From IMG/VR virus record IMGVR_UViG_3300020123_000589, positions 32,001 to 96,000 of that record: a stretch of 64,000 nt of DNA. One strand, given 5' to 3'. The DNA comes from a virus. The notes under the pieces are model-generated. The model worked only from the letters and a program-made list of their open reading frames with translations. It ran no database searches and was not told the origin of the DNA. How positions within the stretch are numbered: the first letter of the stretch is position 1; the number at the start of each line of letters is the position of its first letter. A program made the position numbers and the translations under genes. Of this stretch, positions 2,516 through 39,986 are shown piece after piece.

Positions 2516-4108
2516 ATGGCTATTATTATACGTTCCGTCACCAACAATACACCTTATCTACTCACTTTAAAGGTTCCAAGTCTAGAAGCAAATCTTTCTC
2601 CAGTATCTGTTGCACCGTCAGCAACATTGGATCTTCTTTCAGTTGTTACCGAAGACGACCTGATTGCCATGCAACTTTATTTGGAAGGAATGGTTTCTAG
2701 AGGAAGTCTAACTGTTGCAGCTACGTTTGATACAGCTACATTAGAAGAGGGTTATAATGGTGGAGGTGGCGGCGGAGCTAATACGACGTTAAGTAATTTA
2801 ACGTCACCCACAGCACTAAACCAAGACATTCTTCCAGCTTCTGATGGTAGTCGATCTTTAGGAAGTTCTTCAGTACAATTTGGTCAACTCTATACTTACA
2901 ATGTTATTTCTAATAATGATGATTTGGATCTTACCTCAGCATTTAATGTTTATTTAGCTTCAGGACCCTCATCCGACATTATATTAAATGCGGGTTCAGG
3001 GCATATTAATGTAGATACACATAATATTACAAATATGGCAGACCCCGTTAATCCCCAAGACGCTGCCACAAAGAATTACGTTGATACGCATAGTGCAGCT
3101 CCCGCCGGAAATCCAAATGATATTCAGTTCAATAATGGTGGAGCTTTCGGTGCAAATGATGTTTTTTTCTGGGATAACAATACAGAAACGTTAAATGTTC
3201 CAAAAACAGGAATTGTAATTAGTCCGTTGGGTGGTGGCAATTCAGATGGATCAATTGGGGTTGATAATGGCCACAATCTTCAAATTGCTGCAAGTAATAC
3301 TAATTCTGCATCGTTAATTTTATTTGGTTTTACTCCTAACATGTTCTTAAATCCAACAGGAGCATCGGGTGTTAATGATACAAGTTCTTCTAATACTGCC
3401 GATCCTTCAGCAGCCTGGGATATTCAATCAACTACAAAAGGACTACTTCTCCCACGTCTAACAACAGTTCAAAGAGACGCTATAGTTTCTCCAGCAACAG
3501 GTCTTGAAATTTATAACACCGATACTAATCAGGATGAATATTATAACGGAACTACCTGGAACGCAATTGGAAATACAGCAGTTGCAGGTGCAAATACTCA
3601 GCTTCAATTTAATGCCAGTGGGAGTTTTGGTGCAGATTCCAATCTTGTATGGGATAATACGAACAAGGTTTTAACTGTTACCACTGGAGATTCACAGTTT
3701 TATGCTATTAGTGCCTCTCCCGCCATAAAAATTCTTGGACACGCCTTATCGCCGTCTGCCGAGTTAGATTTTTATAAGAGCGATAATAGTTTTGCTTTGG
3801 GATCTATTTTCACCGATGAAACGACAAATAACTTTGCCATTGCTGGTGGTAATTCAGCGGGGGATATTGTTATCAGTCCTTTTTCGGCTAAGGGTGTATT
3901 AATTAATAGTAACTCTTCTGCACATCCAGATGCGAGTGCAATGTTTGAAATAGATTCTACAACACAAGGTTTTCTCTCACCTAGAATGACAACGGTGCAA
4001 AAAGATGCAATAGCTTCTCCCGCTGAAGGATTAACAGTATACGATATAACACTGCATAAATTAAGTGTTTGGACTGGAGCAGCTTGGGAGACTGTAACAT
4101 CGGCGTAA
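2516..4108 (+). CDS. virion fibre/decoration protein
   Basis: Gly/Thr/Asn-rich; DPVNPQDAATKNYVD, IQFNNGGAFG and two PRxTTxQ(R/K)DAI repeats. Confidence 0.7.
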   Translation: MAIIIRSVTNNTPYLLTLKVPSLEANLSPVSVAPSATLDLLSVVTEDDLIAMQLYLEGMVSRGSLTVAATFDTATLEEGYNGGGGGGANTTLSNLTSPTALNQDILPASDGSRSLGSSSVQFGQLYTYNVISNNDDLDLTSAFNVYLASGPSSDIILNAGSGHINVDTHNITNMADPVNPQDAATKNYVDTHSAAPAGNPNDIQFNNGGAFGANDVFFWDNNTETLNVPKTGIVISPLGGGNSDGSIGVDNGHNLQIAASNTNSASLILFGFTPNMFLNPTGASGVNDTSSSNTADPSAAWDIQSTTKGLLLPRLTTVQRDAIVSPATGLEIYNTDTNQDEYYNGTTWNAIGNTAVAGANTQLQFNASGSFGADSNLVWDNTNKVLTVTTGDSQFYAISASPAIKILGHALSPSAELDFYKSDNSFALGSIFTDETTNNFAIAGGNSAGDIVISPFSAKGVLINSNSSAHPDASAMFEIDSTTQGFLSPRMTTVQKDAIASPAEGLTVYDITLHKLSVWTGAAWETVTSA

Positions 4109-31841: not shown

Positions 31842-32501
31842 ATGACATTTGTTTTAATTCATGGGTTAGCGAAAACTAAATTTTATAAAGCATGGCAGTG
31901 TATGAAATCTCGCTGTTTAAGTAGTAATGATCCTTCATACGTTCATTATGGCGCACGAGGGATAAAAGTTTGTGATAGATGGCTAGGCAAAGATGGATTT
32001 AGTCATTTTAAAGTAGATATGTATGAAAGTTATCTCAAACACGTAGAAGAGTTTGGTGAAAAGAACACAAGTTTTGAACGTATCGATCCCAACAATAATT
32101 ATGAACCTTCTAATTGTAAATGGGCTACTTGGAATGAGCAAGCCAGAACTAAAAGAAGTTCTTCTAAAACAGCAGATCTTAATGTACACTTAAAAAAGAA
32201 ACACGCATTACATCAAGTTTTACGTTATTTAGTTAATGGCAAAATCTTGGTATCAAAGTATGAAAAATATTTTGGGTGTTCTTTAGTCCAGCTTAAACAA
32301 CATATAAAATCTCAATTTCTTCTTGGTATGACTTGGGATAATTATGGTAGAAATCCAGATCAGTGGCAAATTGATCACATTGTTGGCGTAAATAATTTTG
32401 ATCTTTCTAGAGACATGGATGTATACAAATGCTTTAATTTTAAAAATCTTAGACCGTTGTGGTTGAAGGATCACAAAAAGAAATCAACTTTGCGGGTGTA
32501 A
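31842..32501 (+). CDS. free-standing HNH-type homing endonuclease, paralogue of 10601..11482
   Basis: W.CMKSRC, YG.RGI.VC.RW, SY.KHVEEFGE.NTS, NYEPSNCKWAT, GMTWDNYG..WQIDH. Confidence 0.85.
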   Translation: MTFVLIHGLAKTKFYKAWQCMKSRCLSSNDPSYVHYGARGIKVCDRWLGKDGFSHFKVDMYESYLKHVEEFGEKNTSFERIDPNNNYEPSNCKWATWNEQARTKRSSSKTADLNVHLKKKHALHQVLRYLVNGKILVSKYEKYFGCSLVQLKQHIKSQFLLGMTWDNYGRNPDQWQIDHIVGVNNFDLSRDMDVYKCFNFKNLRPLWLKDHKKKSTLRV

Positions 32502-37152: not shown

Positions 37153-38363
37153 ATGTCAGAACAAGTTACCAAAACCGCTTCTCCTGATGACATTTATGCC
37201 GCAGGGCTTAGTGCCGCTCAGGTTGAAGAAAAGCTAACTCGTTTGATGAACAGCCCAGGCGGATTGCAGAAGATTGCTCAGCAAATGTTGAGCCCTCTAA
37301 AGCGCGAACTTCTATATGAAGGTCGTATTCGCCAGTTGTTCCAGACGTACAAACTCGCTCTAGGCGAGGAAGCCGTGTTTGACGCAGACTTAGACGTTCC
37401 AGCAGCATCCATTTCCGTTCATGGTTTGCCACAGGAACTACAGGTCGAAGCAGATCGTATCCGCGTCGAAACTGGCCCCCTAGCAACCCGTCCCTTGATC
37501 CGATGGAACGAATCCAACTTCCGAAAGTACGATGTTCTTAATCGTACCCAAGAACGCGCAAAAGCTTCCATTATGCTTCAAGAAGACACAAAAGGTTTTC
37601 AGCTCATTGACTTTGCTGCTGGTCTAACAAATCAGACCCCAGTAAATTCACTATTTGGAACCTCTGCTGCAACCAATAACCCAACCGTGCTACCTGCGAC
37701 TGGTAAATTGGACATGCAGACACTAGTAACAGGTATCGTTACACTACGTTCAAAGTTGCTCGTAGCTTCAAAGATTTATTTGAACCCACTACGAACCGCT
37801 GATCTCATGCTCTTCAACACAACCACATCAGGAACAGGCGGAGCCGGAATTTTCGCTCCTAACTTCCAGGATATGGCATTGAAAGCAGGTCGCGTAGGTG
37901 GAATCTGGGGCGTTGATGTCCTAGAGTCCGTCGTTGTTCCTACAGCTAACACATACGTTCTAGCTCCTGCGGATTATCTTGGCGTTCTCGCCGTTCGTAC
38001 TGATATTTCCGTCGAGACAATGAAAGATGTTAACCAGATGGCCGACATTTTCGCAATCTGGGAAGATATCGGCTTCCTCATTCGCTACGCTAAATCGATA
38101 GTAAAAATCGTAGTTTCTTAAGTCCCTTGGCGTAGTAAAATTGGGCCGTATCGGTGAAACTCTTACCAAGTAATGTTGGAGACAATACCGAGGAAAGACT
38201 TGAAAAATTTCAAGTATCCGTAGAGACTAAACGCCCGACTCCGAAAGGATGAAGTTATAGTCCGACCTTCACAGAAATGTGAAGAGGTTTCCAGAAATGT
38301 GAAATCCATCTCGAAAGAGAAAGTAACAAATCGAAGGGCATTGTTAAAATTGTCGTTAGCTAA
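37153..38363 (+). CDS. major capsid protein; exon 1 37153..38091, exon 2 38334..38363 (the unspliced frame ends at 38121)
   Basis: position, size (322 aa), strong SD AAGGAG, distinct high-expression codon usage; P-domain-like G.IWG.DVL.S.VVP. Confidence 0.85.
38092..38333 (+). ncRNA. group I self-splicing intron, 242 nt, no internal endonuclease ORF
   Basis: P1: exon CTACGCT pairs with GGCGTAG (38129-35), U.G at the splice site; P10: CCCTT/AAGGG; P4 TCGGT/ACCGA; P7 GACTA (38225)/TAGTC (38258); GAAA-capped 3' hairpins; terminal G 38333. Confidence 0.9.
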
Positions 38364-38395
38364 GAATTAGGCGTATTATAGATGTGAATCTACTG

Positions 38396-38420
38396 GAGGG
38401 GTCAGTAATGACCCCTCTTG
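38396..38420 (+). terminator. stem-loop after the MCP gene
   Basis: GAGGGGTCA-GTAA-TGACCCCTC-TT. Confidence 0.65.
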
Positions 38421-38446
38421 ATAGACTCATAAAAGTATGTTATAAT
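38418..38446 (+). promoter_or_regulatory. sigma70-type promoter for the GIY-YIG gene, probably leaderless
   Basis: TTGATA-17 nt-TATAAT with extended TG; ATG 6 nt after the -10 box; no SD. Confidence 0.7.
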
Positions 38447-38452
38447 TAATAT

Positions 38453-39232
38453 ATGAAGCGAAAATGCTTAGGTTGTTCAATTGAGTTTGAAGTTACCTCC
38501 AAACAATTAGATAAAAGATTTTGTACTCAAAGATGTTGGGGTAAGTATCAAACTGAACATAAATTAAATATGAAGGCTGAATTACGAAATCGCCCAACGG
38601 TAGATGAAGTAAAGAAAGCTTTTTCAGAGCAAAGAATAAAATTGGTACAATCTTTAACTTTCGTTGATTTTGCTTTATCTGGTGTTTATATTATCATTAA
38701 TATTGTTAACAATATGATTTACATAGGTTCTTCCAAAGATATTGAAGCTCGATGGAGAGAACATGTGCATAAATTTTATGGAAATAGACACGAAAATGAT
38801 AAATTGCAGAAAGCTTGGAACAAATATGGGGAAAAGGCTTTCCAATTTAAAATTTTAGAAGTTGTTCAAGAGAAAAACCTTGTAGTCCGAGAACAATATT
38901 ATTTAGATTTGTATAAACCTTACGAAAGACATATCGGCTACAATTTATATAAAACAGCTTTTAGTCCTTTAGGAAATGTTTGGACGGAAGAACAGAAAGC
39001 AAATTTAAGAGTCGTTCGACATAATCAAAAACCTAGAAAATTATATTGTAAATGGTGCAAAACGGTTTTTATTGTAAAAGGCCAAAACGCTAAATTTTGT
39101 TCACATAAATGTCGAGACAAAGCCAGATGGCAGAAAGATAAAGCTAAAAACCATTCAGGAAAACGTAAGACATTAAAAGAACTATTTGATTCTTTAACTG
39201 ATGGTGAATTAGCAACAATTTTGGAAGACTAA
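38453..39232 (+). CDS. free-standing GIY-YIG homing endonuclease with flanking zinc modules
   Basis: SGVYII.N..N..IYIGSS..I..RW..H, LQKAWNKYG, REQ..LD, GYN; CxxC..FCxxxC at both ends. Confidence 0.9.
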   Translation: MKRKCLGCSIEFEVTSKQLDKRFCTQRCWGKYQTEHKLNMKAELRNRPTVDEVKKAFSEQRIKLVQSLTFVDFALSGVYIIINIVNNMIYIGSSKDIEARWREHVHKFYGNRHENDKLQKAWNKYGEKAFQFKILEVVQEKNLVVREQYYLDLYKPYERHIGYNLYKTAFSPLGNVWTEEQKANLRVVRHNQKPRKLYCKWCKTVFIVKGQNAKFCSHKCRDKARWQKDKAKNHSGKRKTLKELFDSLTDGELATILED

Positions 39233-39243
39233 GTTTCTTTTGT

Positions 39244-39315
39244 GGGCTTGTAACTCAGCGGGAGAGTGCTTGCTTTGCAAGCAAGAGGTCGCAGGTTCAA
39301 ATCCTGTCAGGTCCA
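39244..39315 (+). tRNA. tRNA-Ala(UGC)
   Basis: canonical cloverleaf; G3.U70; CTTGC-TTTGCAA-GCAAG anticodon arm; GGTTCAAATCC; CCA not encoded. Confidence 0.93.
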
Positions 39316-39327
39316 CTGAAGAAATTT

Positions 39328-39627
39328 ATGGATAACTTAAATCTGTCTATAACTATTGGTTCCTTTGTTCGACTTAAAGGCGAAAATATTCGTTACTTGG
39401 TTTTGAAAGTTAATGAACATCATGGTGTAAATCTTCTTCGTACTTATAATAGAAATCCAAAGAAATGGTATGTAAGGTTTGCACAACTAGAAGAAGTTAT
39501 TCCAGTAGAAGTTCCAAAAGTACGAATTGGTATTTTTAAAGAAGCTTTTCAGAACTTTTTTGAAAAACACGGTAATTTTTGGTTTGATAATTTAACTTAT
39601 ATTGAGATATTAGGTAAGCTGATTTAA
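39328..39627 (+). CDS. hypothetical protein
   Basis: 99-aa ORF inside the RNA cluster. Confidence 0.55.
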   Translation: MDNLNLSITIGSFVRLKGENIRYLVLKVNEHHGVNLLRTYNRNPKKWYVRFAQLEEVIPVEVPKVRIGIFKEAFQNFFEKHGNFWFDNLTYIEILGKLI

Positions 39628-39910
39628 TTTACTCCCCCATAGGTTTCGACCGTGGGCGCAGGGTTTCTGAATTGGGCTCGTTCCCAATAGTAGGAGCAAC
39701 TCTTGCATTGGGGCTCTGAAATATTTCATCCCCTAACAATTTTAATAATACATCGAGGGACAACAAGATTGCATTGAGGCCAGATTATTTGATACATGGA
39801 AAATGGGTCATGCCATTGGAAGTGACGGTTCAACCTCTCTTAGCCTTTACGGGCTGACCTCTGATCCTCTTGGAATGGGCGTAAACCCGAAACCCCAAGA
39901 AGGATGATTT

Positions 39911-39986
39911 CGCACCGAGAGGTTTTGGTAAACCTAGTTGTCTCATAAGCAACTGATTTGTGGTTCGATTCCACACGGCGCAACCA
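39911..39986 (+). tRNA. tRNA with CAU anticodon (Met/fMet-like, atypical)
   Basis: GTTGT-CTCATAA-GCAAC arm; TGTGG-TTCGATT-CCACA; encoded CCA; C1:A72 mismatch. Confidence 0.8.

Follow-up and report, generated by a model that had tools for sequence, protein, structure and literature searches.

Group I introns in protein-coding genes, of which the td, nrdB and sunY introns of T4 are phage examples, are usually thought to be tolerated only through good splicing. In the T4 introns, translation across the 5' splice site interferes with splicing, and we know of no report that a T4 read-through peptide resembles the exon displaced by the intron. Zeng, Bonocora and Shub in 2009 reportedly described collaborative homing, in which an intron without an open reading frame (ORF) lies beside a free-standing endonuclease gene; examples include the psbA intron of cyanophage S-PM2 with F-CphI, and the DNA polymerase intron of T3/T7-like phages. 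Group I introns in phage capsid genes have been documented in lactococcal phage Tuc2009 and mycobacteriophage LittleE (PMC3706429). In fungal mitochondria, endonuclease-borne replacement C-termini are found in atp6 of Allomyces, in atp6 and cox2 of Phlebia radiata, and in rps3 of Ophiostoma (summarised in PMC4019555). Here we report the analysis of a 64,000-nt stretch of viral DNA (hereafter the window), positions 32,001 to 96,000 of the 151-kb IMG/VR contig IMGVR_UViG_3300020123_000589, in which the major capsid protein gene of a large phage carries a group I intron near its 3' end, and the P1 loop of this intron encodes in frame a near-copy of the protein ending that the intron displaces. 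We favor, with a probability of about 0.68, a reading in which this is an ORF-less self-splicing intron carrying a diverged exon copy, where both the spliced and the unspliced readings would be kept by selection and splicing would still be needed.

The capsid gene, the intron and its parts are located in the window as follows.

37153..38091, + strand, major capsid protein gene, exon 1, 313 codons, from the ORF list
38086..38091, + strand, P1 5' strand UACGCU, pairs with GGCGUA at 38129-38134; U38091.G38129; 5' splice site after U38091
38092..38333, + strand, group I intron without ORF of its own, 242 nt, 9 codons before the capsid stop
38092..38121, + strand, in-frame tail copy encoded by the intron in the P1 loop, KSIVKIVVS and TAA
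38124..38134, + strand, internal guide sequence, CCCUU (P10 partner, overlapping the P1 extension) and GGCGUA (P1 3' strand)
38141..38320, + strand, ribozyme core and periphery, from the Rfam alignment, with hand-drawn helices checked by pair counts
38141-46/38233-38, + strand, P3
38151-56/38186-91, + strand, P4
38161-69/38176-82, + strand, P5
38192-38219, + strand, P6-P6a
38223-28/38259-63, + strand, P7
38240-49, + strand, P8
38267-84, + strand, P9
38286-38307, + strand, P9.1
38309-20, + strand, P9.2
38333, + strand, terminal (omega) G, 3' splice site directly after it; the intron ends ..AAATCG
38334..38363, + strand, exon 2, native C-terminus, KGIVKIVVS and TAA

Exon 1 ends in ..CGC TAC GCT, with its last base at 38091. 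Read on without splicing, the ORF with its intron-encoded tail spans 37153-38121 and encodes 322 amino acids; it matched PHROG 2522 (major head protein) with an E-value of 1e-35, and the AlphaFold model of the capsid protein (mean pLDDT 69) matched shells of the HK97 fold (HK97, T5 and others) with a probability of 1.00. In this model, the capsid fold has its last beta strand at residues 316-321, and the preceding turn is R-Y-A-K-G. Relatives of the capsid gene were found on contigs of up to ~210 kb.

The copy reads AAA TCG ATA GTA AAA ATC GTA GTT TCT TAA (38092-38121), and exon 2 reads AAG GGC ATT GTT AAA ATT GTC GTT AGC TAA (38334-38363). As the initial annotation had read them, the two tails are identical at eight of nine residues and stop at the same codon, while 11 of the 30 nt differ. 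The resemblance is specific to these places: in a six-frame search of the whole window for KGIVKIVVS before a stop, at least 7/9 residues were matched at these two positions only and at most 5/9 elsewhere, and 30 shuffled windows gave no match better than 6/9. The resulting layout is a substitute ending with its stop (38092-38121), a mobile insert (38122-38333), and the original ending (38334-38363).

The segment 38092-38333 is a real group I intron, predicted to be self-splicing. All the elements named at the outset (P1 with its U.G pair at 38091, P10, P4, P7 and the terminal G at 38333) were located; P10 is formed by AAGGG (38334-38) and CCCUU (38124-28), and P1 is recovered by local RNA folding. 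The Rfam group I model RF00028 matched 38073-38284 with 47.2 bits (E 5.9e-11 for a 551-nt stretch, E 3.9e-12 for the whole record, where it is the sole match), so that the covariance-model check proposed earlier gave a match, yet one below the curated cut-off of 50 bits. Homologous introns score on both sides of this value: 58.9 for the first intron of the capsid allele L059, 50.1 for that of L148, and 48.6, 41.6 and 38.7 for others.

Covariation was tested on nine capsid-gene introns of one family, using 50 hand-drawn pairs, 500 shuffles, and slid partners as a control. In this alignment 91.2% of cells are paired and both sides have changed in 18 of the 50 pairs; none of the 500 shuffles matched the pairing, and the slid-partner controls were only 36-51% paired. 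Compensatory changes were found in P1, P3, P5, P6a, P7, P8, P9 and P10. In P1, the window's UACGCU/GGCGUA corresponds to UAUGCU/GGCAUA in L148, and AUUGGAU/GUCCAAU in L207 to AUCGGAU/GUCCGAU in L208, a compensation that tracks a synonymous isoleucine codon. P7 shows a compensatory G-C to A-U change in L204. In P10, AAGGG/CCCUU of the window is replaced by AAAGG/CUUUU in L204 and by AUUUGG/CCAAAU in the fourth intron of L059; P10 is weak, with 2-4 bp, at the insertion site called B below. The guide sequences differ among insertion sites A, B and C.

Removal of the intron restores a known protein ending. Two intronless alleles, L004 and L005, lack exactly 38092-38333 and end in ..YAKGIVKIVVS, identical to the spliced tail predicted at first; their capsid proteins are 98% identical to that of the window, with a DNA identity of only ~83%. 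More broadly, in all seven intron-bearing alleles for which exon 2 is available, removing the intron yields the tail of the clade's intronless relatives. The earlier placement of a 242-nt intron nine codons before the capsid stop is thereby upheld at the same coordinates, with covarying helices.

As observations on the wider relationships of the ribozyme, its P4-P6 region (38149-38192) is 95% identical over 44 nt to a segment of the 354-kb Yersinia jumbo phage fHe-Yen9-04 (L002:2501-2544). The counterpart there is an unannotated intron splitting nrdB (g298/g299/g300), and the ORF of nrdB exon 1 has its stop right at the intron start, as in the window.

Relatives were collected by a protein-guided scan of IMG/VR (59 capsid loci), a protein search (121 capsid homologues, with further ones from cluster members), and a scan of metagenome contigs for the intron core. 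Exact 20-21-nt intron patterns retrieved only the contig of L003 from IMG/VR, and a two-block core pattern was therefore used, giving 119 loci, of which two lie in capsid genes. Besides the window, seven intron-bearing capsid alleles with a copy were found (L003, L204, L148, L207, L208, L183 and L094), representing three capsid clades. All tails quoted below are followed by a stop codon, and a slash marks the insertion point. At site A (YA/KG, 9 codons before the stop), the copies read KSIVKIVVS in the window and L003, KSICKIVIS in L204, and KSLVKITLP in L148, where the spliced tail is KGIVKVTLP. At site B (GGN U/UY, 16 codons before the stop), L207 and L208 carry the copies FLVRYCKGICKIVVS and FLVRYCKGIVKIVVS and share the spliced tail FLIRYAKGIVKIVVS; L183 has the copy FLVRFSRSIVKINIV and the spliced tail FLIRFAKGIVKINIV; and L094, whose contig ends within the intron, has the copy FACRYSKAICKITLP.

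The behavior of these copies argues for selection. The reading frame is kept throughout the eight alleles of the two sites A and B, which span three clades: each copy spans the whole displaced exon (9 or 15-16 codons), without insertion or deletion, and stops at the same codon, and the copy ends match the residues VVS, TLP and NIV specific to the three clades. Over the same alleles, the spacer that separates the copy stop from the guide sequence is anywhere between 1 and 13 nt long, and variation is also seen in the 3' terminal segment. Differences between copies (independent pairs, 33 codons) fall on codon positions 1, 2 and 3 in the ratio 7/3/16 (chi-square p=0.006), and those between the window and L204 copies alone in the ratio 2/1/7 (Fisher p=0.004). 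Exon 2 shows the same pattern among the intron-bearing alleles (4/2/15, p=0.0009), and in seven alleles it is the exact clade consensus, changing almost exclusively at third positions. Selection thus appears to act on the spliced and the unspliced reading alike.

The first interpretation had taken the synonymous changes that separate the copy from exon 2 as a sign that the unspliced frame is translated and selected. Within one genome this argument is insufficient, because a tail acquired from a different allele would present the same picture; indeed, real tails encoding the identical peptide already differ at 7/30 nt (exon 2 of the window compared with L004). Selection itself is supported by the comparative data above. 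Counts of synonymous and non-synonymous differences between copy and exon 2 were tried as a selection test and discarded, being saturated (pS 0.8-1.0) and equal to the average between real tails. The copies of the window and L003 are identical at 30/30 nt, compared with ~5% change nearby, a difference that is not significant (P ~0.16 by our own estimate).

The suggestion that splicing may be optional did not hold up. The ribozyme is held by compensatory changes, exon 2 is under coding constraint, and the copy always departs from the A-K-G motif of the native turn. Optional splicing is accordingly not supported by the comparative pattern, which suggests that splicing is not dispensable.

Every copy differs from the native tail at A-K-G. 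Among homologues with RYxK-motif tails, the residue after the lysine is glycine in 94 of 97; the exceptions are P0001 and P0002, from the window's own cluster, and P0086, and a further homologue with serine after arginine (P0014) is also intron-bearing. No copy carries an intact A-K-G, the replacements being S; S; C; S-R-S; and S..A, and the codon swaps are often multi-base (GGN to TCG/GCA; GCN to TGC/AGC/TCG; AAG to CGC). Three explanations of this region were considered and rejected. The rule that every copy loses glycine was true for the first five alleles only, since L207 and L208 keep glycine and change alanine to cysteine instead. Avoidance of a P1 extension competing with P10 fits site A only, as the A-K-G codons of site B lie mid-loop. 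A stabilizing hairpin in the P1 loop was suggested by copy folding energies of -1.1 to -13.6 kcal/mol, with five of seven copies more stable than their own exon 2; the effect is not significant, as all copies fall within the range of 30-33 real tails.

Under the favored reading, the intron would act as follows. A ribosome crossing the 5' splice site before P1 forms would translate KSIVKIVVS and terminate at the stop codon 38119-38121, which lies two bases short of the guide sequence, yielding a 322-aa capsid protein in which Gly315Ser is the sole difference from the native form. If P1 and P10 fold and the ribozyme acts, exon 1 would be joined to 38334, giving the native 322-aa protein. Since translation hinders splicing, the heavily translated capsid mRNA should give much read-through product, and the spare ending would make of it a near-normal subunit instead of a mis-tailed one that disturbs assembly; a junk tail on a complete subunit could plausibly have that effect. 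Splicing would supply the native A-K-G form, and the intron would travel together with the free-standing nuclease gene close behind it. That both forms are translated, that assembly benefits, and what the nuclease contributes are the inferred parts of this scheme. In its favor, serine occurs naturally at the equivalent of position 315 in the intronless relative L185. This locus (L185:3937-3975, encoding P0086) shares 59% protein identity with the window, reads AAA AGT at this point, and has a terminator-like hairpin directly after the gene.

Several points weigh against this reading. The Rfam score of the window's intron lies 2.8 bits below the curated cut-off. Capsid introns farther upstream in relatives have no copy, which means that an intron can persist in a capsid gene without a spare ending; a different intron family at NQMA/DIFA (L206) and insertions near WED (P0155, P0166) give read-through peptides unrelated to the tail. 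The window and L204 are only 67% identical in the copy, compared with 94% in exon 1, 93% in exon 2 and 89% in the rest of the intron, and V/C variants in the copies are common to site A and site B alleles. Taken together, the low identity of the copy relative to its flanks and the variants spanning sites indicate that the copies probably recombine. Through such exchange, part of the coding-type pattern could have been brought in from elsewhere, with no selection acting on the copy where it now stands; the codon-position tests assume that the compared copies share a common ancestor copy. The sample comprises eight alleles of about four lineages with short tails, so the power of the tests is low.

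A more ambitious account, which we regard as possible and hold only tentatively, treats the locus as a home-and-rescue cassette. The module of intron and nuclease would invade the end of the capsid gene, the recoded copy would keep the unspliced RNA productive and leave DNA consisting of exon 1 plus copy immune to the neighboring nuclease, and splicing would restore the native protein. Immunity would come from the multi-base swaps at A-K-G codons (GGN to TCG, GCN to TGC/AGC, AAG to CGC).

Less probable, and in our judgment unlikely, is that the tail copy is a functionless relic of the installation of the intron and nuclease cassette, refreshed by recombination with the tails of co-infecting relatives, and that the read-through protein is of no consequence. 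An intronless allele is collinear with exon 1 plus copy up to 38115, so that crossovers can fall inside the copy; nuclease genes that promote recombination adjoin; the excess divergence of the window and L204 copies over their flanks, and the V/C variants spanning sites A and B, speak for exchange; and the real tails of one clade already show synonymous differences at 7/30 positions. The identity of the codons, however, argues otherwise. In the window's clade, the copies end in a TCN serine codon (TCT/TCA) in four distinct alleles (five loci) and never in AGC, whereas the true tails have AGC in 8/8. The copies also share changes that real tails lack: AAR TCG (AAA/AAG TCG) is common to site A copies across clades, and TT TTA GTG (TTTTAGTG) is common to site B copies across clades. 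Together these features imply that the copies descend as copies and are not fresh captures from real tails. They likewise contradict the related proposal that each invasion simply left the recipient's own tail in place as the copy. In addition, an indel or a lost stop is seen in 0/8 copies, though the adjoining spacer shows both kinds of change, and refreshing would restore A-K-G, which is intact in no copy (glycine is present only in L207 and L208, and there alanine has become cysteine).

Two deliberate isoforms, with Ser315 (unspliced) and Gly315 (spliced) taking distinct roles in the shell at a ratio set by the splicing rate, appear very unlikely to us. The copies all depart at A-K-G, just before the last strand, and not at random, and both forms are conserved, as such a scheme would have it; yet the replacement varies by lineage, with glycine kept in L207 and L208 and serine or alanine elsewhere, most relatives are intronless with one-form capsids, and nothing in the structure was found to call for two forms. 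Least probable of all is a dead ribozyme, with the KS tail as the true C-terminus and the KG tail as a displaced relic of the fungal-mitochondrial type. In its favor are the shared layout of ORF, replacement tail with stop, mobile insert and second tail (PMC4019555), the sub-threshold Rfam score of the window and the poorly paired P3 of L094; against it stand the compensatory changes in eight helices from P1 to P10, the clade-consensus exon 2 that changes almost only at third positions, and the fact that the glycine supplied by exon 2 alone varies only once (P0086, Ser) among the scored non-intron tails.

Downstream of exon 2, the window contains three further features.

38396..38417, + strand, GC-rich hairpin GAGGGGUCA-GUAA-UGACCCCUC, probable 3' end of the capsid transcript
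38418..38446, + strand, promoter-like site TTGATA-17-TATAAT, 11/12 matches, with TG (extended -10), before the nuclease gene
38453..39232, + strand, free-standing GIY-YIG homing-endonuclease-like gene, 259 aa, Pfam PF01541 E 3e-12, PHROG homing endonuclease families

A terminator scan of the window did not call the hairpin at 38396-38417, which has no U run; hairpins of different sequence occupy the same position in L207, L208 and L206. The position of the hairpin and promoter-like site ahead of nuclease genes is conserved in L003, L206, L207 and L208, with differing hairpin sequences. A nuclease gene lies downstream in 7/7 assessable intron-bearing loci compared with 10/47 intronless ones (p ~1e-4, uncorrected for relatedness). 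The window's GIY-YIG type follows the site A alleles, and two site B alleles are followed by a GIY-YIG/NUMOD3 type; the third, L183, has a different ORF with a weak match to endonuclease I. Two tRNA genes lie beyond the nuclease gene, at 39244-39315 and 39912-39982 (69 and 34 bits), and the whole block 38116-39661, comprising intron, exon 2, nuclease gene, first tRNA gene and a 99-aa ORF, is missing from L004 and L005. Intronless alleles with a downstream GIY-YIG gene (L010, L011, L013, L022 and L029), as well as L059, have GGG TTT CTT at the site B codons, compared with mostly GGA TTC TTG in alleles without a nuclease gene (comparison of L014-L033). The association of GGG TTT CTT with the nuclease could reflect linkage or target-site immunity.

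The last ~27 codons of the capsid gene form an intron hot spot with at least 5-6 insertion points, namely NQMA/D, FA/IW, WED/, WEDV/, GGNU/UY and YA/KG (L183, L094, L207, L208, L059, L206, P0155 and P0166), some of which are used by one intron family with an altered guide sequence. The capsid allele L059 (L059:1359-4072, IMGVR_UViG_3300036766_000678) is split by four group I introns, with Rfam matches at 1387-1708, 2809-2954, 3443-3679 and 3769-3954; one intron of ~1 kb probably has an ORF inside, and a 27-nt mini-exon (3735-3761, VNKMADVFA) separates introns 3 and 4. Intron 4 occupies site C (FA/IW, 21 codons before the stop), where the P1 loop reads KIKQVCKKLYLQMVK and offers no usable copy; its K-x-V-C-K may be a remnant of one. 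In L094 (L094:1-265, minus strand), P3 is poorly paired, with three unpaired cells, and the tail copy is the most diverged; this ribozyme may be decaying, its phage relying on the copy. Outside capsid genes, introns with the P7/J8-7 core motif form a widespread family in other genes: more than 119 environmental contigs (L063-L181) share the motif, mostly with a spacer of 38 nt and not 23 nt. In a simple screen of 138 other core-motif introns, apart from the capsid ones, no tail copy matching a downstream stop-terminated peptide was found.

If the favored reading is correct, a stand-in for the displaced exon would be a second route to harmlessness for a selfish element, beside good splicing. 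The locus would be a rare case of the same few codons being kept twice, in the loop of a ribozyme helix and in an exon, with RNA and protein constraining them jointly. Capsids would be expected to be mixtures of two C-terminal forms, and the reading would explain complete-looking capsid ORFs from gene callers that hide the intron. The end of the capsid gene, where introns occupy three sites within 21 codons of the stop and further ones a little upstream, would also suit work on how introns move from site to site. The arrangement recalls engineered gene drives, in which a recoded rescue copy of the target is carried along.

Compared with the known systems, the locus combines familiar kinds, a group I intron, a homing cassette and a replacement C-terminus; a literature search brought up no published description of a P1 loop that re-encodes the exon displaced by its group I intron. 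Like other phage group I introns, that of the window is small, lies in an essential and highly expressed gene, and has an in-frame stop shortly past the 5' splice site. For the known capsid-gene introns (PMC3706429), the read-through peptide is not reported to look like the displaced exon, whereas the window's intron re-encodes the whole exon and the copy is conserved in relatives. The parallel with collaborative homing is an ORF-less intron with a free-standing GIY-YIG gene behind it that has a promoter-like site of its own, the two co-occurring, and the introns of sites A and B each have their own GIY-YIG type; the differences are that no spare exon is known there, and that here homologous nuclease genes also follow intronless capsid genes. 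The fungal replacement C-termini share with the window a mobile insert close to the 3' terminus of an essential gene, a substitute ending with its stop, and the original ending downstream. Unlike them, the window places the substitute ending inside the P1 loop of an intron. In the fungal type, the downstream ending is described as displaced or alternative and is not rejoined by a ribozyme, while exon 2 of the window is not a displaced, unused remnant: it keeps the clade consensus, and the conserved ribozyme would join it to exon 1, restoring the native ending, with both endings conserved.

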